A stretch of 64,000 nucleotides of DNA from Stylophora pistillata (taxonomy: Eukaryota). Every line of letters starts with the position of its first letter. The first letter of the stretch is position 1. The stretch lies in assembly GCF_002571385.2 (NCBI RefSeq), contig NW_019218275.1, forward strand, positions 26,586-90,585, read 5' to 3'. Shown here piece after piece: positions 1 to 39,413 of the stretch. Both the position numbers and the translations under genes were made by a program. The notes beneath the pieces were generated by a model that saw nothing but the letters and a program-made list of their open reading frames with translations, did no database searches and was not told where the DNA came from.

Positions 1-374
1 TTAAGTTAGTCTTCAGTACGTTTAAACTCAGAAACATGTTCAGTGTGAAAGATTCAGTACCGCTAGGTCTACGTTCGCGTGTCATATATAAATTTTCATG
101 TGCTGGCTGTAATGTCAGTTATATTGGTGAGACCACTCGCCACATTTGTACACGAGTTCGTGAGCACCTCTTGTCGGACAAAACTTCGCATATTTACAAG
201 CACCTGCAATCATCAAGGGCCTGTCTTGACTCTTGTGATACTGAATGTTTCACGATCTTAGATTCTGCCCCTTCAAAATACCAAATTAAGATCAAAGAGG
301 CATTGCATATTAAGTGGGAAAAACCTATCCTTAATCAGCAATTGAAACATCTAGAATTGTCTCTTTCCTTTTAA
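1..374 (+). mobile_element. Penelope-like retroelement, C-terminal GIY-YIG endonuclease domain (5'-truncated by window edge)
   Basis: ORF reads VIYKFSCAGCNVSYIGETTRHICTRVREH...IKEALHIKWEKPILNQQ: GIY-YIG motif (VIY..YIG) with intervening CxxC, plus the conserved R..EH, E and N residues typical of PLE endonucleases; stop at 372-374. Confidence 0.92.
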
Positions 375-3343: not shown

Positions 3344-5090
3344 AATACAATACAATACTTTATTATTAATTCTCCCCATGGGGTTTTTCAGAATTAATTT
3401 ACAATGTGTATATATAATGTAAATAAAACCAATGGTATAAATACAACAACTTACATGTACTTGATATAGAAATAACCTAAAATTAGTACTAAAAGTAACA
3501 ATCATAACAACTAACACTATGAAATATTCTATAGTTATATATTAAGATACCAGTACCCTATTTCTTCGCTAATTCTGCCTTTGCATGCTTTTTAAATGAT
3601 CTTAGTGATTGAGCAGTTCTAGTTTTGTTACTGAGGCTATTCCACGCTTTTGCTGCTCTATAAAAGAAACCACGCTGGGCAGCCGCTGTTCGGCAGTTTG
3701 GCAAGTTTAGATCTTCACTATTGCGGAGATTGTAAGCGTGCAAAGTTGATCGCTTCCCTATTTTACAGCTAATATATGCCAGCACTAAATTGTTAACACA
3801 TTTGTACATCATTGTCACGTCACGCAGTTGGAGTTGCTCCTCTATAGTTAGCCAGCCAAAAGCTTTCAAGGCCAGTGTAATCTGATCGTATTTCCTTGTG
3901 TAGGTTAGTATACGGGCGGCAAAATTCTGCATAAGTTGTAGTTTATGGATATTCTGTTTGTAAGTACCAGACCATACAGTAGAACAATAGAATAGCTGAC
4001 TAAACACGATAGAGTTAATCATTATATAAAGAACTTCTTTGGAGAACAGGTGGCGAACCCTACTTATTTTACACAAACTAGATAGCAAAGATGACGATAA
4101 TGATGAGATGTGATTAGTGAATGTTAAGCCAGAGTCCAGGGAAACACCCAGGTCTTAAGCGGAAGAGACAGAGTATAGTTGCTGTCCAAGAAAGGGTACA
4201 GTGACGTCAGGTAGCTTTAATACAAGCTGCCGCGTTCTTAAGAGCACAAGTTTAGTTTTATCCGGGTTTATATGCAGGTAATTTGCGCAACACCAGCCAG
4301 CAATACTTTCAAGATCCTCAGCGAATTGTTTTAGATAAGAGTGGATATCTTTAGACGCACACGATAAGTAGATCTTAGTGTCGTCCACATAGGATTCGAT
4401 GTTACTGAACTTAGTTACCGTTGGAAGGTCATTCACATAGAGTGTAAACAGCATCCGGCCTAAGATGGACCCTTAAGGTACCCCATGAGTTATCGTGAGG
4501 GGATCCGACAATGATGTTTCAATTCGAGTACACTGCCGTCTATCTGACAGGTAGCTCTTGAACCAGTGGAGTGCATTCCCTGAGGTGCCGAGCAGTTGGA
4601 GTTTGCTGAGCAGGGTAGAATGAGAGAGACTATCGAAAGCTTTACTCAAGTCTATTAGAACCGTTGCAGTTATTTGCTTGCTATCCATCGCTCTGAGGAT
4701 GTCGTCCGTCACTAATAAGCTCAGCGTTTCCGTTTCAACTTTGATGTGTGGTCAATCGATTATGCAATGCCAAGTAATCATTGAGCTGACGCATGGCAAC
4801 TCTCTCCGCTACCTTAGAGAGGACTGGCAGTAGCGAGATGGGACGGTTGTTACTCGCCACCTCATGATCACCCTCTTTTGGGTGTGGGACTACTTCACCC
4901 TTTTTCCACGCTAACGGAAATACGGAACTTGAGAAAGAGTAGTTTATTAGGTCAGTCAGCGTTGGAAGAATGTGTTCGAGGCAGTCCTTAACCACCGAAA
5001 TGGGAACTTTATCGAAGCCCGGTGCCTTATTGGTAGGCATGTCTAAGACGACTTTTCGCACATCGTCAGGCGTGACTGACTGGAGGAAAC
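3344..5090 (-). mobile_element. 5'-truncated, frameshifted CR1/L2-clade non-LTR retrotransposon (RT domain and 3' UTR)
   Basis: Consecutive broken ORFs give KAPGFD, NRPISLLPVLSKVAE, LIDLSKAFDSL, GVP, LFTLYVNDL, YVDDT, INPDKTK, LFYCSTVW, LQLMQNFAARI, FFYRAAKAWNSL; 3' end AATAAAG(TATTG)n at about 3344-3365. Confidence 0.93.
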
Positions 5091-8000
5091 TGACTGAAAC
5101 ACAGAAGTGAAAGACCAGAGAAGCAGATGGCGAAAGCGTCAACCACGCAGCGATAAGGCGGAGCTTGCAGTTTGTTGCCTTCAAAAAGGTCGCAAATTGA
5201 AAAGCGCACAAGGAACCCAAGGAAATAAAAAACAAATATTTCCAGCCAAATTCGTAGATAAAGCAGAAAGACTTCATCATGGCGCTAGTGTGCAAGATTC
5301 CCACAGGACAAAGTTCTGATGACCTAAGAGCGACAAGTCGTTGTCGTTATGCCCATCCATGGTGGTGGAGAGACACTCTTCAATATATTTGTACCAAGTG
5401 CACACGGTATAACGAGCAAGCTTGCAAAGATCGAAGAAACCATGAAATGTATGTTTGGAACTAAGGCCCCTACTACACGGAGTACAGGACAATCTGGAAA
5501 GACACACAATAATGAAAATACCTTTCTACTAAACACTCTGTTCAAGACAGACCACGAAATATCGAGATATCTCCATCAGTGCAGCTAGAAGAAATCTGGC
5601 TCGTGGATCTCGCTGAACTGGAGGAAGTGTCAATTACGCCTTGGTGCGAGGGAACTCGGGCTTACAAGAACCCCCAGAGTTACGATTGCACTCTCATCTT
5701 ATTAGAGTCGTCTATTATGTACAGAAGTTAAGGACATTAAATTTGACTCTTGATTCGCGTATATAATTGCTTAAATTCGTAAGAATCGACAATTCTAATC
5801 AAATCAAAAAATCTCGTGTTCAACTTGCCAAAGCTTTTATCGTTAGTAGTATATCAGGACCAGATTATTGCCTTATCTAAATTGCCGGCTGTGCTGGAAT
5901 TCTTACCCCAATCATTTATTGGGAAATACTATGATTCTCCGACATTTTACGCTGTTCAAGTAGAGAATGTTTAACTTACAATCTGATATTGACTCATCTT
6001 TCCTGTTCAGTGGTTAATTTTGACATATTTGAGCTGAGTATGCGCAGCATAGCACCTTAGGCAAGACAACATGGTAACCTATATAGTTGAGAAAATCTTG
6101 TTGTGACCTACGTGCGTACTTCGCCCTCTGCGTTTGCACTGATTCAGAACTGGGAAACAGTTTGCATCCGCATACATACGCAAGCCGAGGAAAGAGTTGC
6201 CTTAAGCAAGCTCCGGGTCAATAGAGTCAAGCGATAAGAGGTTTGCTGTAGCGATGAGAATCGTAGATAGTACTGTGAGTGACTTCAACTGAATGACAGA
6301 CACAAGGAGGTCAGTACATTAGGACGCTTAAAAAAACACATAAAGACGCTTTAACGGGCAATGGATACCCTGATTGAACCATACACAACCTGAAATCAAG
6401 GCTGGAAAGCAGATGACTAGACGAAACTGTCCGATTCACACGAGAAGGAGGTCGCCACTTCAACAAAAAATGAACCAAGGATGAGTATAACGTAGTTATT
6501 CACTCCTTGCATTAGGGACACTCAGAGAAATTCAAAATTACCAACATGTGGAAGCAAATACCTCATTCAGTCAAAGGATGATTTAAAGGAGGATAGTTTC
6601 GCACGGTCCGTCTACAACATCATTTAAGTTGACTGACGCAGGTTACGCGGACGAAATAGAGAGAGCGATGAGAAGCAGATCGATGAAATATAAGAGGGAG
6701 AGTTCTCTTAATTGGGAGGTTTCTAAAGGCATCCATAAGATAAAAAAAAAAATCACTCAGTTATCCTGAGTGAACCAAAGATGTTGTTGAATGTCTAAAA
6801 GAGGCGTTTAAGAGGCCATTCTACAATACCACCGCCTGTGAAGAATAGTCTCAATGGTCAGCTGTTTTCGACTTAGGACTGGACAAAATCCAGCGGAAAA
6901 AACTTGGTCGAGAACGTTGAAGAACAAGGTCACTTTGACGTTGACGGCTACGTGAACGAGTCCAAAAATGTTCTTCCTGAGAGATGATATGCTTGTAGAG
7001 CGACTTGCTTCCGTCAAACATTTGAAAGGAAGAGTGCAACACACGATACCCGTTACACCTAAGTTGACTAGCCATAAATTATCATAGCAACAAACGGAAG
7101 GCAGTGAGTGAAACATCATATCCCTTACTATGACAAATGCTTTTTCAAATATTGCTCATGTTCAGACAAAAGAGTCAGTTTCAAGATTAATTTTCACAAC
7201 TGCATCAAATGATTTGGACACTGATAAGGAGAACGTTCACTTTGTACCATTAAACTTGCATTTAAACCCCAAAACATCTCAGTGCCTTCAACATTTTTTT
7301 TCTCCACAAGGAGACCGATGTTAATTTTCTAATCTTTCGATCATCTTTTGTAGTTCTCCCTTGCTGTCAAACCACAAAGAAAAAAGAAAGGAAACATAAT
7401 GCAGACGAAAAAATGTCGAGAAAAGAAAGGCATTTGTTTTTTGATAATTTTTTCGGAAAACGACTTTCAAATTTACATAAATCACAAGAGGTATTATGAT
7501 AGCGTTATTTTCAAAGTGTTCACACCTTATAAGATAAACATCTTTTCATTTACAGCCAGTTGCAATTATAATTCTTTGTTACTTTAGCAGTGCAAATGTT
7601 CCCTCTGTCAATAGCAAGTTGCTATGTACGCGTAACCTTAGAAACACGACTCTTTCTTTCCTTTACAATGAGTTACGTTACAATCAACTGCCAATAAGTT
7701 GAAGAAAAAACCGTCTACTCTTCAGATTTGGCTTTCAAAGGTGGTATTGGCGGACCTCGAGCAAAATCAACTTAACATAGGAAAGACATTGAGCTGATTT
7801 TTTATTTTCATTTCTTGTCACAAGTAAACAATTAATCCTCCGACCATCATTTAAAATTGATCGCAAATTTCCATAAGGCAGTTGTTTTGAAAGCTACGGC
7901 CGTGTCAGCCATGTTGGATACATACGCTATTTGCAACAAGGGGTTTAAAATTCTATTTGAACGATTAGTATGATCAAAATTTATTAAAAACGACTTCTTC

Positions 8001-9993: not shown

Positions 9994-10030
9994 AAACTGT
10001 TGTTGAAACTATTCTTGATAGGCACCCAGA

Positions 10031-11782
10031 ATGGCGGCAACAGCGTGGTCGTTGAGTCCAACAGTGACCGTCAAAGTCTATAAGAATGGTAACCCCAACT
10101 TTCTTGGGAAGACACTTGTTATCAACAGACGCCACATACGCAATATGGAGGCTCTGTATGACGAGGTAACGATGCACATTTCGGCATTTAACGCCGTGCG
10201 AAAAATATGTACACCGATCGGCGGGCGTCCGGTTCAGAGCTTGGAGAATATTAAAAACAAGAGCGTTTACGTGGCTGCTGGGAGGGAGTGTTTTAAAAAA
10301 CTGAACTATGCAGATCTGGGCATAAGAAAGCCTCGCCCTCCGCGAAAGGCGAACAATTCGCCCAAGAAAGCAATCATCGTGGCTGAGGGGAGACACAAGA
10401 TGGATTATGAGTGGGCGAAAAGAGACCTAAAGATCATCCACGTGTTTTGTAATGGGGACGTGTTCAAACCGAGCGTCAAGATTGTTCTTCAAAAACGCCT
10501 TCAGCAAAGCATGGAACAAATTTTAGGAATTGTGCAAGAACACGTTTTCCTAGCGGCTGCAATTGTATTGTACACAATAGATGGTAAGCTGATTTTTACT
10601 CCTTCCCAGTTGATCAGTGGACAAAATTACGTGGCTGTTGAACGAGGGAGGATGTTTAAACGAGTGAATTACGGTGCTGCTTCCTCTTTACTCGCTAAAA
10701 GTCCGCGTGGGCCTTTCTTGCCTATGATCGGCAACGGACAACTAACCAACCCAATAGGACGATCGTATAAAAAGATTTCAAAACGAAAACCGCAGGTCAC
10801 AAAAACCAACGCGCAAAGCAAATCAATTGAACACTCAAGAGGCAATCAGTCAAGTGTCACCACTATGATCGTGGAGTCACCGCGTGACGTCATCTCAAAC
10901 GTGTCCCCAGATCTCCCAGTGGCCACTTCATTACTACGTGCATCACAAGACATCCAAGATAGTTTCACCATCTCTGCTTCACCACCTGCACAACTCGAAG
11001 GCGATACTCCCGTTCAAGAGTACACTGCTCGGGTGATAAAACAAACTGACAACGATGATAGTTTAGTAGCTGACAGCGTGTTCAAAGCGAGTGGTTTGCA
11101 GCAAGAAAAAGCAGCTGAAATAAGGGATAGCCATCAAACGAAGGAAGAAAAGCCATTAGACCTACTTCCGGCGGAAGAGGTCCTAGAGGAAGTGCTCCAG
11201 GAGGTAAAAGACACAAAGACTTCCATCGAGAATTCTCACGTTTCAAACAAGGATGAGGCCCACGTCAAAGAAATTGAAGATGATGTTGAAGTTATAGAGG
11301 ATGATTCCAATTTGAGTCAAGTAGCGGACAAAACACCTCAGTTTCAGGCGCAAGCTTGGCAGTATGAAGAGTCGCAATTAAGCATCAAAAACTCCGATGA
11401 AGAGATAAAAAATTCTCGTCTCCCAGCAAAAGAGGATCGCGAGAATCCTTCACCCTCGGCTAAAGATCGAGATGAAACGTCTTCTGTTGACGACATTCCA
11501 ATACAAAGAGACATGAAAGAAGGTAAAATACGGTCGGATTCATCGCCTAAGCAAAAACCTGCGAACTTCACGGACGAAGAAGAGGAACAAAATTCATCTC
11601 CAGCCTCGGAAACGGACAAATCTGAAAATGAAGATTCTGATAAAAGTGTGGAGGAAAATGAAGATGATGATGAAAAGGAAAACCAAATGGCCAACAACGA
11701 ATTAGAATCAAGTAATCCTCGGAAATTTTCAAAACCAGACAAGACTTTGAATGGCATTGATAAAACCAACTATATTTCTTAG
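10031..11782 (+). CDS. DCDC2: Doublecortin domain-containing protein 2-like (two DCX domains, acidic disordered C-terminus); CDS in a single exon
   Basis: 583-aa ORF. DCX1 VKVYKNGNPNFLG...AVRKICTPIGG...YVAAGRECFKKLNYADLG; DCX2 IHVFCNGDVF...LYTIDGK...GQNYVAVERG..FKRVNY; DCDC2-type C-terminal motif VFKASG...AAEIRDS..TKEEKPLDLLPAEEVLEE. A splice acceptor (ttcttgatag) just upstream of the ATG implies 5'UTR exon(s). Confidence 0.88.
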   Translation: MAATAWSLSPTVTVKVYKNGNPNFLGKTLVINRRHIRNMEALYDEVTMHISAFNAVRKICTPIGGRPVQSLENIKNKSVYVAAGRECFKKLNYADLGIRKPRPPRKANNSPKKAIIVAEGRHKMDYEWAKRDLKIIHVFCNGDVFKPSVKIVLQKRLQQSMEQILGIVQEHVFLAAAIVLYTIDGKLIFTPSQLISGQNYVAVERGRMFKRVNYGAASSLLAKSPRGPFLPMIGNGQLTNPIGRSYKKISKRKPQVTKTNAQSKSIEHSRGNQSSVTTMIVESPRDVISNVSPDLPVATSLLRASQDIQDSFTISASPPAQLEGDTPVQEYTARVIKQTDNDDSLVADSVFKASGLQQEKAAEIRDSHQTKEEKPLDLLPAEEVLEEVLQEVKDTKTSIENSHVSNKDEAHVKEIEDDVEVIEDDSNLSQVADKTPQFQAQAWQYEESQLSIKNSDEEIKNSRLPAKEDRENPSPSAKDRDETSSVDDIPIQRDMKEGKIRSDSSPKQKPANFTDEEEEQNSSPASETDKSENEDSDKSVEENEDDDEKENQMANNELESSNPRKFSKPDKTLNGIDKTNYIS

Positions 11783-12470
11783 CCTCTGGACTCTCTTCTT
11801 CTTATCACAAAAATAAAACATAACTCAACGTCCACTATGTGATGAGAATGAATAAATTCTTACTCCCGAGCTTTTATCTCGATATAACATCAAATTCTCT
11901 TAGCAACTTGGAGGGGAAATGGACAGTAGGAATAGGGGACAATTACGCATCTAATACTACATTTTATTACAAACCTAAGCTCTTAACAAATACTTGAGAA
12001 CGAGCTGAACCGTGAGGGCGCACAAATCTTGAGGAGTTGGGCAGCGGTGTTCTGCCGATGGAATCACTGAACGTTTTATAATACGTTAACAAAACGATCA
12101 ATGAGAAGTTAGCCCAACGACCGAAGACGTTACTAAACTGGTCGTTAGCGAAACGACTCGTGTGCGAAATCACCGATTATCCTTCACAGAAGTTGTTTGC
12201 TGTAAATAAGAGTATCGATGTCATTTGATTTCGTCACTTACGTGTCCTTAAATTGACAAGTTATTCATTCAGTCGTAAGTTATACTTGTATTATACAAGG
12301 TTAAGCTAGATTAAATCTTGTAAACTCTATATTTATCTGCCCAGCGCAGCGTTGACTCACGTTCGCTTGGGTTTTTATTCTCGGATTCATAATGGCTTCT
12401 CCCCTCTGTAAGTCGGTGCAATGTTGATTCGTAATAAACCCATATATTCAAATTCATTGATTCATAATAA

Positions 12471-12625
12471 TCAGCTCGCAGTTGACTTGTTAGCTCAGTT
12501 GGTCGAGTACTGCACCAGTATCGCAGAGGTCATGGGTTCAAATCCCTTACGGGCCTGAATTTTTTTCAGGCCTTAATTCCACTACTACATAAGTGTGTTC
12601 ATTACTGCGAGGATTGCTTTCATAC
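12471..12625 (+). mobile_element. tRNA-derived SINE-like repeat
   Basis: A box TAGCTCAGTTGG (12491), B box GGTTCAAATCC (12535), followed by GGCCTGAA-TTTTT-TTCAGGCC hairpin; a 3' fragment of the same element recurs at 40654-40720. Confidence 0.75.
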
Positions 12626-14041
12626 GTTCCTTCTGAGATTTTCAGTTCTCGCTTGTTTTATAATATTTTGAACACTGATCAACTACGCGATCTGCCGCAG
12701 GCTAGAACAACTTTGCTGCCAAGCTCATCTACTTTCCGCTTGTTAAGCTTAGATGATTTTCCCTTTTGCTGAGCTTACAACTTTTCGCGTCTATTTTCCG
12801 GGCAAATCGGCAGGTGTATTTCTGCATTCACGGTTCCAATGTTCTGCACAAATATTATCAGAATACTAGTTTACAACAGAAATCCGAAGAATTCTGGTGT
12901 AAGAAGCGTGTATTTCAGGGTCCCGCGGCAAACCATAATACTTGAACGGTTGTCCGTTTGCTATGCTCGTTCTGAAAGCTATTTTCACGGAAGGCTGAGT
13001 AGCAAAACTACTTGACTATGGTGATCCTAGCTTTTCAACACCACTTTGTTTACGTGCCCGCCATGTTTGTTGAGCTGCCCCTACAAGGCTCTGAACTAGA
13101 ACCAAGACCTCCCAGTGTGAACGTTCCTAATGGGGAGAGGGTACTTAATTTGAAATGTTTGTCACAGTTCCCTCTTGCTCGAAAAGAAGGGAAGATGAGA
13201 GACCCTGGAACGAAGTCGGAGAAAACTAGCTCGTTAGCGGGCTCTTACTATAAGCGCTTTGGCACGAGTGTTTCTTCGCTTGGGGGAAAATATGTATAAG
13301 GCCTTGAGCAAAGTGAGCCGAATAAAGGTCTGCAAGAGGATTAACACTGATAATGCCAGGCCCCAGGTAATTGTTTCCCCGACTCGTCTCTAATCTTCCC
13401 ACGGGCGGAGAAACAAGCTTCCAGCTAATGACAGCTTGGTCGCTGGACCGAAATCAAGCTTCACTAAGAGCCTAAACCGAAGAAGCTCATAGTATTTGAG
13501 CAACGTTCACCTAAACGACGAACTGAGAATCTTATTCACTTACCTTAACATTCTTGTTAGTTAACATTTATTAAGACTGTCTGAAATTTATTACGAATTG
13601 AAATAAAAAATAGCCGTTTCTGTTGTTTCATTGACGTAAAACTAAAATAGGTGAAGGATTATTAATTAAAATTAAACAAAATTGTATTTACAACATGAAA
13701 ACGAATTATTTTATTGAGTAAACTCAAAACAAAGTCTAGACTTTTATGGCTTGAATGATTACATTTTGTGGAAAGCGAGGCACAAAAAAATATCTTTTAA
13801 GTTTCCTGTTTTGTTCATAAATCACGGATTTAAATTTTGTTTTGTTCAGTTGAAACAAAAAAAAAAAAACAGCTGCCTTTGTTAGGGAGGGTTTTGAAGT
13901 ACCATTCAAACACATTATGATTGTTTCGGTGTATTTATGTGCCCATTAACTTTGACTTTAATTGCATTTGCCGGAACGAAAATTATATCATTGATGCATC
14001 ATAAACAAAACTCTTATTTGAAACTTCTCCCATTAAAGAAA

Positions 14042-17000
14042 ATGTCTTTGTCAACGGTAACTACCGTGCAGATAACAAAGTTAAATGAAAGTCGCTTTAG
14101 AGAAGAGGCTGTCGATATATTTAGAGTTAAAAAAGCAGCCAAACGCTCTTTTTTGTGTAAGGATCGCCGTGAGTTTGGTTCGCTGCAGTTTACGATAGGA
14201 AATCTGCAAAAAACCAGCGAGAACAACATCAAAGAATATGAAGATAACAAGCGTAATCTACAGTGGTTTTTGTACAATCTTCAGCTACAGAGAACAGGTA
14301 AAATTTACCGCCAGAGTAAATCGCGTACTCAAATTAGATCATTCACGAGTTACTCTGAGCATTTAATTATATTCGAAGGTACTTTTTGGGAACACCACTT
14401 GTGAATTAAACTAGCCTTTAAGTGTCTTTTGCGTCGCTTCCCAGCCTTAATTCTAGATTGCCCTAAAACTCATCCCAAAAAACACCACTTAATTTTGATT
14501 CGTAAAGCACCTTTACCAAAATAGTTAATCCTTTATAACAATTTGCATAACTAAATTAATCACTTATATTCAATCAAAAACATGGTTTCATTAACAAGGG
14601 TTTTCACAGTGAAAACGGAACGGTTTAAAGCCCCTTTTCCAATGTTCCGGTCTCCCGTGTGATTGTCACCAAATGCTGCAGGGAGGGGGGTGTACTACTG
14701 TAGTGCGACTTAATTTAGTTACTTATTCCCACCGATTAACTACAACAGAACAGCCGTTTGATGAGTTTTTGCACTAAGATTGCCGCTTTTATAGAAGATC
14801 ACGCAATGGTAGCCACTCATTTTAAAGTAATTTCGAGACTTTAAGACTCCGGTTTTAAGTTTCCCTATTAAAAAGCTTAGGTTTTTCCTACCAAAAAATA
14901 CACGTTGTTGAAGGTATCCACCAAGCCTGAGTTTTAGGTGAAGATAAAAATCGATTAGTTATGCAAAGTTGTTCAAAGTTTGCCCTGAACTCTCTCCAAC
15001 CCTCCCCATGCGACAAGACTCCGTATGGAAGCGGTTAAACTAATGCTTTAGGATGATGAAATATTTTTTTAAGTGCCATACAGTCATTCCTTCGTTTTCA
15101 TTGCACATCTTAGCTGTACAGCTTTTTGACGCTTTACTAACGCGGGCACATTTTGATCAAAAGACGGATTCGGACAATGCGTGTGGTTACAAGCTTGAGA
15201 TTTGATCCAGATCATGGAATCATTCTGATCCTGCAGGAAACTGCAATTCTGAATTTGTCATACGCGGTTGAAAGCATAAGATTTTCAAATCATTTTCAGA
15301 TCATCAGATCACCCTGGACATAATCTTTTAATCATCATCACAAAATGGAAACTTTTTTCTTTGTGATCGCCTTGAATTGTCACCTTCCGCAGAACGAATA
15401 GAAAGCAGTGTACGGTTTATTGAAGACTTTTGAAGTTAGCAACAACCTTGCTTCTGTACACTGAATGTAAACAAACTGATTTACGATATCCCGGATTAGG
15501 GGTGATGACGTTATGAGAAACTCTCGCTTAAGAAAGGGCGATGGTGCGGGACAACTTTTAACACAGTCTAAAAATTCATGGCTGTTTCGCAAAGAATATT
15601 GCGAGAAGACATTTTGAGATTTTTCTCACTAAATGTCTTACTGATACACAACAAATAAGTCTCGACAGTTGTCAGTCTGCAATTACAAATTAGCCTTAAC
15701 TTAAACGTGATCAATGATGAAATTCAAATTGCAACTCAGGAAAGTTATTACTGCCATGCTATTGGTTCTGTTGAAGTAATTGGAACCACAACATTAGGCA
15801 AGATAAAAATTTTTAATGGCCTTTCTTTAAGAAAGCTTTTAAATTTTTTGGTCTCAGTAATACCGTATGAACATCTAAACAAGCAATTTACCTACTAATA
15901 ATTTTGAAAACACAAATGATTATGCACTCACCTTTGTGTCTCACCGATATCGCTATTAACAGATTAACACTAAAAACTTTTAAGTGTTATTTTTTGCGTT
16001 ACAAGCGGAATCTCATGGTTATTTAATCTGCGAGAATGGATTTTTTAAGGAGATGTGCGAAGCCTGGCGCGAAGCGTTTAACCATAAAAATAATTTGCGA
16101 GAGGCATAGTCGATATTTCCGACTGTTTCTGTTTCAGTCTGTAACTTTTTATACCTGTTTTTATTTTTAATCATTATTTTTATCTAAACTGCGTAAGTCA
16201 CTTTGACAAAAAAAATCTAATTTTTGTTAATAGTACCGTGTCTTCTAGCTTAGAAGGGAAATAACAAACTAATTGCTCGTATTATTATTAAGTCTATGAG
16301 GTGTAAAGAAAAACACATTCGCGGTACGATTTGCATCTGCGTAAGGGTTCGGGTGCTAATTTCAGTGTACGTATTTACGAAAAACCGGTGATTTGGCTCC
16401 CAGAGACGGCCAGACAAACAAACCCCTTCATTTTTTGTATAAAATAATGCTACTTAAGAAAAAGGATGCACATCTCTACAATTCACTGCGTGCTAAATTT
16501 ATGAAAGATTCACGCCTTGCATAATAGATATGCCGAGAGTAATCTTACAGGAAAACCATTCGCAAATGTATTTCGATGTGAAACACAGCAGTTTGCTCGT
16601 TTATACGGGTGCAAAATATTTAAAAACAGATCAAGACAGGCTGTCGAGGTCGCCCCTTTGTCAGGAATATGTTTTGGATGGCGCAAATCTTGCCAACTCA
16701 ACGAAAAGAGTGTGTTATCGGAGACTTCGTAAAGAAAGAGTTTCGTTGCTAAAGGAAACGAAGGTGTTGCAAGGAGAGGTGGAAGTAATTTTAAGAAGAC
16801 ATAGGGAAGAAAAAAGTAACTTGGAACAAATTGTACATCATTTGAATTTTCAAAAAGAAGGTGAGGACGTCCAAAAGGGTTTACTTTCAATTGAATATTC
16901 AAACGATCTAATGGCGACATGGAAGTAGCTTTTCGTGGAATAGTGATGCATTAGAAACAGAAAAAAATCAAAACGTCGTTAGCTCTTGTATAGGAGATGA

Positions 17001-19502
17001 TATCTTTTGCAAGTTTTCTGGCCAATGTTCGTAGTTTTCTTGTGGATTGAAAAATCGTTTGCGGTGTCTAAATGAGTATTGGCGTGGGCTCGCCAAACTC
17101 GGTTGGTTCGTAGGAAGAAAAGAATCAATGAGTTTGTAAAAGTAAAAATATGCTGTAAAAAACAAGACCTATACTCTATACTCGTTATCATCCCTAGTTG
17201 TGAAAAAATAACCGCCTTTACTTATCAACCTCTCACAGGTGCGACACCTCTTGGAAGTGTTATAAGTGGCAATGCGAGTGGTCTCGTGTCTCTACGCGGG
17301 ATGCAGGCGCAAAGTGATTGTCGGCTCATCAAGAGTATTCGCCGGCCTCTGGCACCGGAAGCTACGCGAGATCACGGAAACAGGCTGATAAATTTCCAGT
17401 CTGATCTCACCTCCAAGGAGGGCTCCATTATTCCACGGGCTATAGAACGCGAAATTCTGAGAAGGCGAAATAAGCGCTTGAATGCTATAAGACAAGAGCA
17501 ATTAGAAGGTGTAAAACAAAGAGAAAGGCAACTGGCAGACACCGTGGGCGTGTACACAAGGATAAACATGACCAAGGGAAGTTTGAACTACAAAGGAAAG
17601 CCGAAATACAGGTACAGGAAGTCTGAACAAAGATTCCGTGCTGTCGGTGGATAAAAAGCACACAGTGGTGACAAACACGACAAAGACTCGCACATCGCAA
17701 AAAATTTGATATCGTGTGCTGATATTATGCGTAAACTTACTTGAAAAACAAACAAATACATCGTATTATCTTCATTTAGACATTCATAGCCTGGTGATGG
17801 CAGGTCTATGAGCTGAGATACTCCCAGTTGTAATATTCCTACGCCCAAATCGTACAGAGAACTTATCTTTTTTCTTTGCCGTGTTAGGCTAGGTTCTCAA
17901 AGAATTGTGCGGACACCATTTGGCAAAGTTTGATGATAGAAAAAACATCCAGCTCAGGTTGTATCCCGAGCTGATCTAAATTAAAACTGAATTTCATTGT
18001 TTATTGAAAGACAGGGGAATAGGGTTAGAAGGGTCTGGTACACAATCTCACCCAAACTTACTTTGAGTAACACCCCGGATACATGGTAGACTACGAGGAC
18101 AACAATCAGTCACTGCTTTTCGGCGAAGTCCGTCGCGTGAGTCATAAAAAATCAGTGCAACGAAAAAACGATTGGAATTGGAGCCTACGAAAAGTAGGTG
18201 GAGTTACACGTGGCGCGCCAACAGGATTTTTTTTGCCTCTGATTTTCTTTGACTAGCGCCACAGAATAGAAAAGGAAAAAGGAGGAGCTACTTGTAGTCT
18301 AGATGCATGGCTGAAAATCAATCATGCACGTTTAAAAGTTAACGTCGCTCAATACTTCTCTCCCCCTTTCTTTTTTTCTATTCATTTGCAGGAAAGATAA
18401 AAGAAGGACAAGCGACTCTCGTGCAACCTTACCAACTTCAGTCAAATGTCACTACGATTTACCATTAATAGAACTCGACCAGACAGTCAGCTTGTGTTCT
18501 AAGGAATCTATTGAAAAGAAAAAGTTCCATAGCAAGTATGAAGAACTTCTACCAGATGCGGAAAGGATGGAACTTATCTTTCCTGTACAAGATAGTCCAA
18601 AAGATAAAATCTGCAGTTTGGTTTCAAAACAAACAAGAAAAGAATTCAAACGAAAGAAAGAAATAATTCGAGGGAAGAACATGGCCGCTAACCTTCAAAA
18701 AGATGATCATAAAAGCATTCAACAGGAAAGCTTTTCTAAGGACACTGAAAGATGTAAGCAACCCGGAGACCATATGGTTTTTCTACGTAAAGATCAAAGT
18801 GAAAATCAAAAAGACATTTTTGATGAAGAGATTCCCGTCGATTCTGTCGCGGTCGAAGAAACTTCTTCAGCCCTGCATAATACCAAGACGAAAAGAGATC
18901 CTCAGAGAAAGGTAGACCTGATTTCCGAAGAAAGAGAAGGAATAATCTCGAAGAAAAATAACAGCACAAAGATGGTTCGCACCGTCAGCAACAAAATCAT
19001 TCCCCTTCTGAAATTTCAACGGCAAAGGAAGCCAGCAATTAGTAAGGATCAACATGATTTCTACATCGAGAGTGTCATGAAAGAGAATAACGTTATTAAA
19101 AAACAAGCAATCACCGAGTTAAGCGAAGTGCCACATGAAGGTGATGGGGACAAATCCCATATTCCTTTAAGCACTAAGAAGCTACAACAACTTATCCGTG
19201 AAAAAGTGCTCAGCCAATCACAGAAGAGCGACGAGAGAGCCAATAAGAAAACAGCATTGCTCACCGACTACGTCCGCACTCTACAAAAGCACATGGGGAT
19301 TAAAGACTCAGAACCGGAAATTGCCAGCAACTCGCCTGACTTTAGTGCAACACCATTCATAGCTGCAGGAAAAACTGGAAGTGATGACAAACAAGGTGAA
19401 AAACCAAGTCTCTTAGAAAAAAGGTTGAAAATGTTGCAAAAGCAAATAATAAGACTACCTACTACATTCACATTGATAGATGGAGACTTGATAGCTGACT
19501 AA
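14042..19502 (+). CDS. Uncharacterised multi-exon protein (predicted 690 aa) with two paralogous helical/coiled-coil modules and a charged low-complexity C-terminus
   Basis: Exons 14042-14297 (phase-1 donor ag|gtaaaa), 16528-16860 (tag| acceptor, ag|gtgagg), 17239-17611 (cag|, ag|gtacag), 18392-19502 (strong polypyrimidine ttgcag|); total 2073 nt, in frame with no internal stop. An alternative start at ATG 16530 gives a 604-aa 3-exon model. No family recognised. Confidence 0.65.
18087..18301. mobile_element. Small MITE in intron
   Basis: Terminal inverted repeats TAGACTACGAG / CTTGTAGTCTA. Confidence 0.55.
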
Positions 19503-25500: not shown

Positions 25501-25593
25501 TCCTTTCCTTTTCCAGAACAGTAATCATCGGATCAAAAATGGCTCTTTAGAAAAGGCTGTAGAGGTGGCACTAGCCGCGTCTGATTCGAGAAA

Positions 25594-28500
25594 ATGGCTT
25601 TTGTTGCCAAGGGAGGATTAATTTTAGCCTATCTTGTGTTCAACTCGTTTGCCTTGAAGCTGCAACGAAGAAATGAAGATGTTTATGGAAACACATGGGT
25701 GGTCTATGTCGAAAGGGAAAAGAGATTTGTCGACGAGTTGGCAGAGAAAAATGGTTTTGTAAACAGAGGAGAGATTTCAGGCTTTCCTGGACATTTCTTA
25801 TTTGAACACAAAACACTCGGAAAGCGGCGAGTTCGCAGAGGTGCACCGCAACACACGAACAGTCTGTTACGTGAACCTTTTGTGAAATTTGCTCGCCAGC
25901 AGAAAGTTTTGAGAAGGACTAAACGAGGATATTTTTTAGACCCTTATTATAAAGATCAGTGGTATTTGAACAACTCAGGTAAGTACAACATTTGCATGTA
26001 TAGATCCACGATGAATTTAAAATCTCCTCTCCCTGTAATGTAACGTGTCGAAAATGTGTCTGTGCTAGTGGTAAGCAAGAGCTAGCTTTAGTTATGGCTC
26101 GTTGAAGCGGAATTATGTAGATGATGGTTGGGGAAGTTGTTGTCCAATGGAAGCTTTTCTGCCTTGATTCTGTTCGGTGGATTTATGAGATGACTTATCT
26201 GTGTGTGAATTTCGAGTTTGGACAGAAATATTTTACATTTATGGTATCTCTATTTTGCATGACTGCCCAAGACATTTTGCCTACTGTAAAATTAAGTTGT
26301 CGATGACGCTAAGAGTTAGAATTCAGTTCAATCAGCCTATCGGGCAGGAAAAATTTGATTGAATTTGATCAAGTCAGTGGAATAATGCATGGTGTTTCCT
26401 TGTTTACAATTTTAAGTCATGAGTGTGTTTGATTCCCTATCTTCATGATCGAAAACACCTCAAGAAAGCTAGGCCATGAAAAATTCCTCGTGAGTATTCC
26501 TTAACTTCCTGTGTACCTAATACAGTTAAGAGTTTGAAACTAAACACACTTATTGGCCCTGTAAAACGGTCATGAACTATATTGTACTCTGACAGATTGA
26601 ACGTACCAAATGATTCTCTAAACGAATTGGATCGATTCGAGCGATTTCTTTCTATCCCGTAAATGCGTTTTGCATGCGTTTTGCCTGTGGATTTAAATTT
26701 CAAACTTCAATCCCTTTATCTTATCATAGCTGCTCAGCTACGGCATGGACGTTGGATTTAGCTGGTATCTATTTTTGCAAGGGACTTCATTGACAGAACC
26801 TCTCGAAACACAAAGGGAATCGTTAGCATTCAATTATCGACCCATATTTGACATCTTCGATTTGTTTGTTAAATTTTCGTCAACTTTGCTGTTGTGCCGA
26901 AGACCTAGACGGGTAACGAAAGGACATTAATATGGCCGATTTGTTTAGGAATGTTTTGTTTAGCAAAATAAAGTATATTGCCTTATACTTGGTGAATATT
27001 TTCGACATTGACGAAAGCCTTTGTAATCGGGTGTTCGTCAATCATAGGTGTTCAGAAAGCAAAATCACAAGACTTTTGCTCTAATTGATATAAAGATCTC
27101 ATTGTGGTTAACATCAGAAGCAGTTGCTAACTTGAAAAAAGCTCTTGCTCAGTTTGAAATTGGCTGGAAGAGAAAGAACTATGGCTGTGTTGAAAAGCCT
27201 CACAGCTTTGCAGGATAGGTTGGCCTTGTGGGGGCTCCCCGAATCCAAAAGTTCACATATGCAAATCAAGTATGCGGAATGTATTTCCTATCCAGCCTAC
27301 CCCTAATTACACTGTTCATTAGATTAGTCACCCCCTGGCCTCAGAAGATATAGATCATTTCCCATTGATAAGACTTCAAAATAACATGTTCACTAATTTT
27401 TGTCTGGCTGGTATTTTTGACAGGCATTCTTTTCCAATGAGCAGATGGTTAAGAGCTCTTTTTGGAGATAACAGGACTCTGTGTGACAAATTTGTCATCT
27501 TACATCAGTGTTAAAGAAGCTTAAAATGTATACTTTGAATCTAAGAACTGCACTATGAACTGTTTGAATATTTAATCCTTTCCAGACTCTTTAGCCTCTG
27601 CTTAAATTGACTAAATTAAATTCACTAAAGTGTGACATGACTGCATTTCCCTCAGGAAGAAGTCAATTTTAGAGGATCCAGAAAAAATTGATGCATATGC
27701 CCTACAGCATTAAAAAAAGCTCATATTTCTATTTTTCCATCACAACATTTAGAGATACCAATAGGTAGGGGGCTTTATGACTGAAGAAAACAATCAGGAA
27801 AACCCTTTCAAGGTATTTTTGAGAAATTATCCTTGAAGTCAACATGCAAGGCAACTTCCCAGTTCTAACTCTGTTTGATGTGAATTACAGCAAGTACATG
27901 TACATTAATTAGTTGTAGAAAAAAGGAAATTTTTTAATTAAATAAGCAGGCATTGTCTAATTGCATTTCGCTGGATGTCGCATACGTGAATTTATGTATG
28001 TTTCATGTTTTGCATCTAAAATCGATGATGGTTTTTGAAATTTGGCACCAGTGTCCAATTACCAACTAAACTGACCAAAGATTGATACATATACTATGTG
28101 GCTTCTTAGCAGGAGGGATTTCTTGAACCTTTGGCCCTATTGTTAACCTCAGAGAGATACTAACTAAATGGGATTGTAAACTGGCCAAATTTAGGTTGAA
28201 CACTCAGCTGTAATGTTCAGAAAAACAGACGGTCAAGTTTACTTAAATTCTGTACATCTGCCGTTGAAGTTGAATTTTTGTCTCTCCGATACTTGTGCAA
28301 CGCAAGAACGACGATGCATGTATTGCCACATTGTTCTGTCAGCTTAATGAACTGTTCTAAGCTTAGCTTAATCTTTTGTATCAATACTTACAGCTTGTTT
28401 CTGATAGTTGAAATACTCCTTTTGTTGGGACATCCATTTTTTTTTCTCTGCTCTTTGTCAACTTTTGTGGCCTCTTGAATACTCCTTGATTTAAACATGC

Positions 28501-31500
28501 AAGTCCAAGATGTTTACAGTTCAAACTTTTTTAAAAAGCTTAAAATTTTTTCTGCTCGTGTTCAGCTTGAAAGTAGAGTGCACTTACTAATGACATTAAT
28601 TTAGGCATGTGGCAAAAATGTGGCCTGCAGGAAAATATCATTCAATACAGTCACAAAATTTCTCTCTTTCGCAAATTTGTATGAAACCTTTTTTTGTTCA
28701 TGGTCAAAGAAGTCATAGATCCAAATCCTGTGTTTTCTTGTACTAGGCAAGTCTTTTCTCCCAAGAATTTACCTTGTTTTGTTTATCCCTTACTATGATA
28801 AATAGTTCTTTTAATATAGCATATGCCACCCTGTCTATATAGGATGTAGTGTGATCTTTTAAGACCCTTTTCACTACAGCTTTGCATACCTGCATGTACA
28901 CAGTACAGTGTGTGGTGCTCTTAAGAATGAACTGCCCAATACAGTTAGCAATGGGAGAGCATTAGTGCCTTTATTTGGAATACAATGTTGAGAAACATAC
29001 ATATCATTTATCTAATTAAATATATAGTACTGATGCTGCAAGCCCTGATAAACAATGCTGCTGCTTTGATCAGCCTTAATATCCTATTAATCTTTTGAAA
29101 TGTAAACTTTTGCTAGTTAACAGCTTCTTTGTGGGTTATTTTTTTTTATTTACTACAGTGACTTTCTCACCTAATAAACAATTGCCTAATGTAATTGGGG
29201 CTTCTTGACTTTTGCTACCTTTTCAACTCATCCACTCTGATTTTCAGAATATGGGCTAGAAGGTATGCTACAAGTCAAATAGGATTATAAGATTAATATT
29301 CTACTATCATTCCACTTTGGTTTCAACAACATATTTTGCACAAATTCCTTATGATAAATTTTGCAGTAAGTAAAACTGTTTGAGCAAATTTGGTGTTGCT
29401 TAAAATATAAGTTTGAAGAAAGCTTGCATTTGTGTAATCAGAAACTACTGGAAATTTAACTTAATGGATGTTTTTGTTGTCAAACTTTTCTTTGGTATGA
29501 AAGTGAAATCACATGCATGAACTTTTTGTGAGTTCTACAAGTGTTGTTTCCATTAGATAAGCATTCTATGTAAGGGATACATTTGTTTATACATTTGTAT
29601 ACACATTTGTTTTCATTTATAAAAAGTAAACAAACTTGTGAAACAGTACTGAACTAGATAAAATTGAAAGAAAATGGGTAAATTTAGATCTTGGTCTTGA
29701 AATTCTTATTGGATTAATTGAGCATGGGGCAAGGTGAGGTCTCAATTTTTTTCATGTGCTTGTGTCAAGACTAATAACATCTTAATTTAGTGCAGAATTG
29801 TAAGTGACAGACAGGTACTTCAAAAGTGTGTTCAAACATCTTGAATAACATTGTCTTATCAATATTCCACAGGACAAACCGTAGGACCACGGGGATTTGA
29901 CATCAATGTGGGACCAGTATGGCGAAGAAATATCACAGGTCACGGTGTGGTTGTTACAATTTTGGATGATGGTATTGAGTACACTCATCCTGATCTTAAA
30001 GACAATTATGAAGCAAAGGCTAGTTGGGACTTTAATAGTCATGATAGTGATCCAATGCCTCGTTATAGCAGAGACAACATCAATAAACATGGCACAAGGT
30101 ACCTTTTCTTCCTTTTTTTGGTCAGAATTGGCTGGTGTCCCGACAGATCCTTGAATTGCTGGAGACACTGTCAAGTCACTCTGTTTTCTTTGAAAATATA
30201 ATGTTCTTTTGTTTTTCTTAATTCATTCATTGTCTAGTTCTGATATTTCTGATAACTAAAATTGATATGTGTTCTTATGCTTTACCACATTTTGTACTGG
30301 TTCCTTTTGGAATATATTCATTTGTTTTTATTAGCTGGGGTTATTTATCTGTTTTGGTTTTACTAGAGTTTTTTCTCTATAGATATGGCATGTTAGACAG
30401 GGCAGCAGAACTTATCTATAAACAGTGTTATTTCCAATTAATTTTCAGATGTGCAGGGGAAGTAGCCGCTGGTGTAAATAACAACAAGTGTGGAGTAGGT
30501 GTGGCTTACAATTCACGCATTGGAGGTGTGAGAATGCTTGATGGGGATGTAACAGATGCCATCGAGGCCTGGTCACTAGGTCTAAATAAAGACTTCATTG
30601 ATATCTACAGCAGCAGCTGGGGCCCAGATGATGATGGAAGAACTGTGGATGGCCCAGGTCCTATGGCCAAGAAAGCATTCAGAGAAGGTATTTTGTTGTA
30701 ACAGTCATTAAAACATGAAGCGTGCAATACTAGAATGTGGGTGCACAAAGGGAAGCAAGGGGGTCATCATCTTGACCAAGCTGCAAATCACTTCCAAGCA
30801 ACTGTCAACATCACTGATAAGCAGAGATGTGGGGTGAATATTTACTGAAAGGGTGGTAGGTACAAGAAGAAAGGGAAGGAAACAAATCCAGCAAAGTTGT
30901 CAGGCAAATTGATATGAAACATGTGGCGATGCGCTAGGTGAAACTGATGCATTGACTTGTAAATTTGCCAAAATTACTTTTAGCCTCAATTTAGTTTTAA
31001 GTTAGTAGTTTTGTTATGAAGTTAATTGAAACAGCTGACTAAGTCAGTTTTTAGCTGTATATGCACACAACTGACACTACATTTTGCTATAGGGATCAGA
31101 AAAGGACGTGGTGGTCTGGGAGCCATCTTTGTCTGGGCCACAGGTAATGGTGGACACTACAATGACTACTGCAACTGCGATGGCTACATTACAAGCATTT
31201 TCACTGTGTCTATTGGCGCTGTCAATGATCGTGGCAAGTCACCGTGGTATGCAGAACCATGTCCATCAACTCTTGCTGTAACCTACAGCAGTGGTGAAAC
31301 TAGAGGGGCAGACAAGCAGATTGTTACAACTGATTTGCATCATCAGTGCACAAAAAGCCACACAGGCACATCAGCTGCTGCTCCTCTGGCTGCAGGTTTG
31401 TTTGTTTGTTACTTTTACTGATGTACCATGCTCCCCATTGTGCACTGATGTGTACAAGATCTCACTTAATATGTCAAGTTGAGAATAAGTAGTACATGAA

Positions 31501-38512: not shown

Positions 38513-39019
38513 CTAGAAATTCTTGAGGAATTCTTCTGCACAAATACGCGCCCTGGCGTTAACAGCTAACTTCATTTCACTGATCTCCTTGTCTATCTCC
38601 TCCATAAACTGAATTACAAAATCAACAAGCTTGTGCTTAAACATTTGCTCCGTATGAAAGTTGGTGATGAGGAAGCTTATGTCGTATCCCTCAACTGGTT
38701 TCCTTCGAAGGATAAAGAAGTTTTCGGCCCGCATCATCATAAAACGCATGAACTTCTTGCACAGGATCTTTTCAATCTCGTCAGCTTGTTTTACGGCAAT
38801 GCTGATTCTCAGAGAGTTAATGGAACCTTCAATGAGCACCTTTTCTTTTTCATTTCGGCTGATGACCACTGGAGTTAGAAGCAATTCCTTGCTGCTTCGG
38901 ACTTCCACTTCGGGTTTGTTATGCCTTTCCACCACCTGGGAATCGAAATTTTCCAAACACATGGACGCAGTGAGAGTCGCACGGACGGCATTCAGGTAAG
39001 GACGTAGGGTAGCAGCCAT
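38513..39019 (-). CDS. ARPC4: Actin-related protein 2/3 complex subunit 4 (p20), 168 aa, intronless CDS
   Basis: [48 protein letters not shown]...[24 protein letters not shown], near-identical to known ARPC4; true ATG at 39019. Confidence 0.98.
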
Positions 39020-39413
39020 TTTTTTCACAAAAAGAAGACAAAATTTGTGGAAGTTCCCAAAGAAATTGTCGGATAGCGGAAACTAGCTACCCTCCCTCCT
39101 CCAAGTGCGCATACTCCAAAAGAATACATGCCGCTGGTCGTTTTTTGCAGTAGCACAAAACAAAACAGGAAATCGAACGGAACTGTGGGATATCATCGTG
39201 TTCAGCGGCCATTTTCGTTTTGTATTTATCTGCCCAACACTTTTACTGATAGCTGAGCCCTTTTTTATGGTAGTAACGAGAACGATCCTATTATGATGAC
39301 GTTTAGCGTTTCTTTCTCTAAGACATGGAAAATATGACAGTGTTATTATTGTAAATGTGGAGACCAGAGGATAAATTTATTAGGTGTGTTTTGGAGGGTG
39401 GTGTGACAAAAAA
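39020..39413. promoter_or_regulatory. Bidirectional promoter/5'UTR region shared by ARPC4 and CNOT1
   Basis: Start codons are 394 bp apart and divergent; locally CpG-rich; ETS-like GCGGAAA (39076), NRF1-like GTGCGCAT (39105), YY1-like CGGCCATTTT (39206). Confidence 0.65.

Follow-up and report, generated by a model that had tools for sequence, protein, structure and literature searches.

A stony-coral gene with two homologous, probably alternative first exons encoding predicted N-terminal helices

The locus and its genes

The stretch of DNA analyzed here, referred to as the window, comprises 64,000 nucleotides of contig NW_019218275.1 from the stony coral Stylophora pistillata. Its main feature is a gene whose coding parts are designated exons A, B, C and D (Table 1). 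Exons A and B each end in one copy of a module, the only two matches to that module within the 64-kb window, and both stop at phase-1 donors (AG/GTAAAA at 14297 and AG/GTGAGG at 16860, respectively). The reading frame is open when exon A is joined to C and D (579 aa) and when exon B is joined to C and D (592 aa), and the two products have approximately 494 residues in common. A third frame, in which A is joined to B from position 16528 and then to C and D, is also open (690 aa). An alternative donor for exon C at 17508 was considered and rejected, as it breaks the frame. Exon C gave a single match in a search of the coral’s own genome, and a search of the same kind for further copies of A, B, three distantly related modules and exon C yielded, among the few candidates scored, a best match outside the locus of E 0.17.

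The nearest upstream neighbor is a separate gene encoding a doublecortin (DCX) domain. Contigs assembled from RNA libraries run past its stop codon to about 12450 and also cover 12869-13630; at 12440-12625, where these contigs show fold-back joints and numerous loose ends, lies a repeat that is likely a small inverted-repeat element. On the other side lie exons of a subtilase gene and of CNOT1, with an uninterrupted ARPC4 reading frame, possibly a retrocopy, between them. The broken frames on the reverse strand near the start of the window resemble a LINE reverse transcriptase.

Table 1. Coordinates of features in the window, numbered from its first nucleotide.
Feature	Position	Strand	Remarks
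GIY-YIG-like fragment	3-371	+	Broken frame; below Pfam cut-off
Broken frames	3561-5346	-	No Pfam match for one piece scanned
DCX-domain (doublecortin) gene	10022..11782	+	Uninterrupted 586-codon frame; Pfam DCX E 5.5e-24
Short conserved non-coding blocks upstream of A	13750..13970	+	Alignment with L012, L014 and L016; candidate promoter or 5' UTR
Exon A, coding part	14042..14297	+	Probable alternative first coding exon; 85 codons plus one base; phase-1 donor
Module copy A	14108..14297	+	63 codons; predicted single helix
Exon B, coding part	16566..16860	+	Probable alternative first coding exon from conserved ATG; 98 codons plus one base; phase-1 donor
Module copy B	16671..16860	+	63 codons; faster-evolving copy
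Exon C, shared	17239..17611	+	Phase 1 to 2; basic; second predicted long helix
Exon D, shared last coding exon	18392..19502	+	Mostly predicted disordered; conserved short helices near C-terminus
Subtilase (proprotein convertase-like) gene exons	25585-30198	+	Pfam scan
ARPC4 reading frame	38516-39082	-	Uninterrupted; Pfam E 2.3e-84
CNOT1 exons	about 40000-64000	+	Pfam scan
Tandem repeat array	about 59130-60000		Runs into 496-base assembly gap

Annotated models and RNA

A search among proteins of 312-994 aa, in which only 7,995 candidates were scored, found nine relatives; at this scope the lack of an A+B model is suggestive rather than conclusive. The B+C+D product of the window is identical (592/592) to the S. 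pistillata hypothetical protein PFX17171.1 in GenBank, the model for which is without exon A, and Pocillopora meandrina CAH3031859.1 has the same B+C+D composition. In Oculina patagonica, RefSeq annotates two isoforms of LOC144651219: X1 (XP_078367257.1) consists of B+C+D, and X2 (XP_078367258.1) of A+C+D. The GenBank model for this coral, ACROYT_G011553, likewise joins A to C. Identity to Oculina amounts to 62/85 residues for exon A, 53/97 for B, 87/124 for C and 162/360 for D. The original prediction of separate A-only and B-only products on the common exons C and D is thus borne out by annotation, with the X2 and X1 isoforms and PFX17171.1 as the respective examples. Alternative isoforms in RefSeq are generally based on aligned transcripts. 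Both the A-C and the B-C junction are known from annotation, and the A-C junction from that of another coral.

Contigs from RNA libraries (four runs, low depth) contained no joints; exon A was uncovered and exon B little covered, and one contig spans 18891-20261 in the region of exon D. Several pieces cross splice sites or sit within introns, a sign that these libraries contain DNA or pre-mRNA.

Conservation across corals

A scan of metagenome contigs recovered eight loci (L010-L017), all of which hold exon B; four also hold exon A, seven hold exon C, and three extend to the DCX neighbor. Exon A lies upstream of B at all four loci that have it, and the order DCX-A-B-C-D is preserved in each of the three long loci, which places the DCX gene upstream of A wherever the sequence reaches that far (conserved synteny). 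The splice sites are similarly stable: the phase-1 GT donor of B is kept at 8/8 loci, that of A is found at the same place in three of four and one codon further on in the fourth, and the acceptor of exon C is kept at 7/7 loci holding it. For both A and B, dN/dS was below 1 in all informative pairs, ranging from 0.12 to 0.34 for exon A (85 codons), from 0.06 to 0.19 for the A module, and from 0.15 to 0.69 for the last 52 codons of B, where some pairs reached 0.5-0.69.

A search among short proteins returned 41 relatives, of which 26 were A-type and 15 B-type. One A-type cluster includes records from Porites, and A- and B-type proteins come from equally long contigs (17,779 and 43,218 nt). On these two grounds, both copies appear to be present in both major clades of stony corals.

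The metagenome loci display several further peculiarities. Exon D is shortened by a stop or frameshift at three of six loci (L010, L014 and L016, with 105, 279 and 310 codons relative to 367-373 elsewhere), which may reflect assembly error or relaxed selection. At L013, exon B (297-545) is followed by no exon C match within 3.9 kb downstream, and represents either an exon before a long intron or a detached copy. Near position 7331 of L012, exon C is fused to D without an intron, exactly at the splice junction, and L010, the B sequence of which is identical to that of L012, retains a 685-nt C-D intron; the L012 join could be an allele that has lost the intron precisely, or it could derive from cDNA. 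In the lineage of L010-L017, the start codon homologous to 16566 has been lost, and B instead starts with a Met located 71-73 codons ahead of the donor, with the codons upstream decaying. CCAAT and TATAAA-like words are conserved upstream of B in most of the aligned loci.

The 5' ends of exons A and B

Exon B was originally described as a 333-nt symmetric exon (phase 1-1) with an ATG at its third base. That frame is readable in the sequence, with the ATG at 16530, but its 5' boundary at 16528 is unsupported by comparison: the AG at 16526-27 is without counterpart in 6/6 aligned relatives, and the in-frame ATG at 16530 is unconserved. The annotated B forms of Stylophora, Pocillopora and Oculina (PFX17171.1, CAH3031859.1 and XP_078367257.1) all start at ATG 16566 or its homologue, and exon B possesses a Met of its own in all nine DNA copies examined. 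The putative acceptor at 16528 has 10/20 pyrimidines, equal to the median of 169 intronic AGs, although the true acceptors of exon C have 10-15, so that this measure discriminates weakly. Directly before the ATG of exon A there is likewise no conserved AG. Because each exon carries its own Met and lacks a conserved acceptor, we infer that A and B have separate promoters and are mutually exclusive. Of the two systems envisaged at the outset, a cassette or a pair of alternative first exons, the comparison thus points to the latter and speaks against the former.

The most durable competing possibility is that B also serves as a cassette exon, in which case a third protein, A+B+C+D, would carry two tandem helices. 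Its frame is the open 690-aa one, each of the nine DNA copies has at least one in-frame (phase-1) AG upstream of module B that keeps B open, and minor transcripts that contain both duplicated exons are known for other genes, such as TPM1, according to the accessible text of PMC8373072. Against this, the two modules occur together in none of the five annotated full-length models (0/5), and the 16528 acceptor has the conservation record described above. The candidate AGs also vary in place, from 195 to 333 nt before the donor; the one AG common to the eight loci is downstream of B’s Met and absent from the window, and in L011 and L012 a stop codon interrupts the frame 82 codons ahead of the B donor. 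In addition, the stretch 16301-16609, which includes 16527/16528, is covered without a break by one RNA-library contig, although this may derive from DNA or pre-mRNA. The original prediction of an A+B product is therefore probably wrong and regular use of B as a cassette improbable, although a minor A+B form may exist, given the in-frame AGs before B at every locus.

Somewhat less probable still is an arrangement in which one shared non-coding first exon is followed by either A or B as the second exon, never both, with splicing rather than promoter choice selecting the module. The window does have an AG three bases before the ATG of A, preceded by a tract with 13/20 pyrimidines, and there are the AGs before B; the AG before A, however, is missing in 3/3 relatives, and what lies directly upstream of A is the set of conserved non-coding blocks listed in Table 1. 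Moreover, the A-B intron measures 1.9-2.3 kb, which leaves no steric ground for exclusion.

That exon A is instead a short or single-exon gene of its own, arisen by partial duplication, with only B belonging to C and D, is very unlikely. Annotations of Porites harrisoni and P. evermanni give A as a stand-alone protein of 103 aa, one of them marked partial, the GenBank models of Stylophora and Pocillopora take B only, and splicing of A to 15237 would bring a stop after 11 further residues. Yet two independent Oculina annotations connect A to C, and the donor of A and its phase are conserved, whereas the read-through tail beyond that donor is not (2-35 aa). The A-B intron of the window, including 15237, matches no relatives by blastn, and P0097, a distant relative, consists of one module followed by exon-C-like sequence. 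Alternative first exons thus remain the preferred reading of A and B.

Homology of the two modules

The last 63 codons of A and B had been reported to align without gaps, and they do so with 15 identities, or 16 when the split Gly is counted, up to their phase-1 GT donors. Anchored at this end, the alignment has a BLOSUM62 score of 43, which was reached by none of 20,000 shuffles that preserve the heptad pattern (mean -26, sd 16); the proposed shuffle test thereby came out in favor of homology. In other pairwise measures, 16 identities were reached in 5/20,000 heptad-preserving shuffles, the best local score of 50 was matched by 5/5,000 full shuffles, and DNA identity between A and B is 78/190.

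Profile methods provide further evidence. Using hhalign, an A profile (21 sequences) was matched to a B profile (16 sequences) over 68 columns with a probability of 92.8 and E 3.9e-7. A profile built from B sequences alone found module A of the window at E 4.2e-7, with the best non-module match at E 0.059 among 3,571 six-frame segments. The reciprocal A-only profile found the window’s B weakly (E 0.012 and 12.7 bits, as compared with 12.2 bits for the top-scoring single segment of an unrelated TPR-like repeat) and other copies of B at E values as low as 1.8e-8. Mean identity is 70% within A, 54% within B and 24% between the two types (14-30%), and in a tree of 26 modules, A (99/98) and B (100/98) form separate groups, with weak deeper forks. 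Together, the hhalign result, the match of the B profile to A and the separate groups in the tree uphold the proposal of an ancient exon duplication. Generic coiled-coil convergence without duplication, to which the low cross identity and weak matches to unrelated coiled coils (E 0.07-10) might be ascribed, is extremely unlikely and has been largely refuted by the gap-free register, the identical position and phase of the donor, the shuffles and hhalign value given above, and six distant proteins that have the same pattern and end at the same Gly.

Fold, domain status and distant relatives of the module

AlphaFold models module A as a single helix at residues 26-84 (59 residues), with block pLDDT values of 89-98 over residues 41-85. 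In the model of the full-length Oculina orthologue, 410/585 residues have pLDDT < 50, and helices are placed in the module, in exon C (151-197) and in the vicinity of the C-terminus. Hydrophobic columns recur at a spacing of 3-4, the middle third of the module is polar, and an Arg and a Leu position are each invariant across 29/29 module rows. The module is consequently predicted to form a long amphipathic helix of coiled-coil type with heptad spacing, and these models agree with the variable, helical N-terminal domain that had been suggested. A homodimer prediction for two copies of module A (residues 16-85), run on the sequence alone, scored 0.00, a value that speaks neither for nor against dimerization.

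Database searches are consistent with the earlier impression of an unrecognized family. Scans of 5, 28 and 11 proteins against Pfam brought no family up to its curated threshold, whichever part of the gene was considered, and searching the PDB by sequence gave nothing significant (best E 0.072). With the module model as the query, Foldseek returned zero matches and VIA-align only generic helices (a maximum Z of 6.7, with 717 chains at Z >= 5 and none at 8); the ESM Atlas gave no match at 0.9 or more. In layout the protein resembles CCDC190 (Pfam CC190, PF15768), in which an N-terminal coiled-coil helix precedes a long low-complexity tail; the same Pfam scans matched CC190 to none of the modules or full-length proteins, and a search of the genome for CC190 was empty, as was its control.

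Relatives were nevertheless found by profile. A full HMMER search with the A+B profile over 1.84 billion representatives produced 28 matches, namely seven A modules, 13 B modules, six distant modules and two repeat-driven matches (P0094 and P0099), which were set aside. The six distant modules are 13-36% identical to A or B and have the same terminal Gly; P0097 is one of them, and one group of them is placed beside B in the tree, weakly (89/74). Three of the distant modules were compared with the coral’s own genome and matched it significantly at this locus only, which suggests that the six likely come from more distant animals. A profile of the six, all members of which were found with the A+B profile, detects the window’s A at E 1.6e-13 and its B at E 0.0012, a preference that, on the evidence of sequence, fits with A being the ancestral-like copy. 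The module apparently constitutes an undescribed domain of about 60 residues.

Interpretation

Taken as a whole, the evidence favors a gene in which A and B are homologous alternative first exons, likely with separate promoters, each spliced to C and D, so that a predicted helix, a likely coiled-coil docking segment, is swapped (probability roughly 0.75). Considered by itself, the architecture, an N-terminal duplicated-exon swap onto shared exons C and D, is likely. Transcription from each of two putative promoters would begin with the first coding exon that belongs to it, and that exon would be spliced at its phase-1 donor to exon C, a junction that is annotated in Oculina and in frame in the window. 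The two resulting proteins would differ only in their predicted N-terminal helix. A may be the slow, ancestral-like copy and B a faster, respecialized one.

The biochemical role is more speculative. The protein could be an extended adaptor or scaffold, in which the swap would alter the binding partner or the cell type of expression. The conserved spacing of hydrophobic positions, together with the invariant Arg, hints at one mode of binding common to A and B, and their diverged surfaces hint at different partners; the odds that the protein is a partner-swapping coiled-coil adaptor are about even. A ciliary or sperm role is hinted at by the neighboring gene and is doubtful. Scans for X-box and forkhead motifs upstream of A and B detected no full X-box in 11 regions and only scattered short sites, and a ciliary promoter is on these grounds unsupported.

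It is tempting, if unlikely to be right in full, to regard the module as an undescribed anthozoan interaction domain that was duplicated before the stony corals arose, its two copies being retained ever since as a binary promoter switch that sends a disordered scaffold to two partners or cell types, possibly ciliated cells and sperm given the conserved DCX neighbor. Were this true, the six distant modules would represent these two exons as they occur in other anthozoans.

Apart from such functional proposals, swapping of homologous first exons at this locus would provide a clean non-bilaterian case of duplicated exons, kept across stony corals in a gene without a described family. It also defines a new 60-residue domain, from which a family model can now be built, and sets right the gene models in which exon A is omitted or split off. 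It overturns no view of gene regulation.

Comparison with known systems

The Oculina (LOC144651219), Stylophora (PFX17171.1) and Pocillopora (CAH3031859.1) entries represent the same gene or its orthologues, and all are uncharacterized. Searches of the openly available main text of papers found none on the gene’s identifiers and, at the same coverage, only unrelated work for alternative first exons or exon duplication in corals. The design of the gene is already known in other animals, and the protein itself appears to be undescribed.

The closest counterpart is the N-terminal substitution of tandemly duplicated exons. As in that class, the coral exons are homologous, lie in tandem upstream of shared exons, have the same donor phase, are each joined alone to C in annotated isoforms, and have both been long conserved; a conserved acceptor at the 5' end of B, as a cassette exon would have, was found in 0/6 aligned relatives. 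In the accessible text of two studies of the human genome, 39-40 of 236 substitutions derived from tandem exon duplication are N-terminal (UHP events) and are attributed to alternative promoters (PMC8373072, PMC9741552). The same text describes duplicated-exon substitutions as rare, yet ranks them, for humans, with the splice events that are best conserved and carry most functional weight; the N-terminal ones are old and conserved, and terminal ones often involve exposed helices, coiled coils or disordered segments (PMC8373072, PMC9741552). The coral gene resembles the human UHP events, as far as these are described there, in that duplicated 5' coding exons yield homologous, swapped N-termini. 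It differs from them in belonging to stony corals and to no described family or domain, in having copies that are only ~24% identical, and in that its use of promoters is deduced from the 5' ends of the exons.

A broader likeness is to the clustered protocadherins, UGT1-type loci and the 5' cassettes of chelicerate sDscam, in which, in the text available, homologous variable 5' units are combined with constant 3' exons and each unit has its own promoter (PMC4835542, PMC8373072). The protocadherin and sDscam cassettes, as portrayed in the available text of PMC4835542, realize the same design in arrays. Unlike these systems, the coral gene has two units only, with no array and with no Ig, cadherin or enzyme domain.
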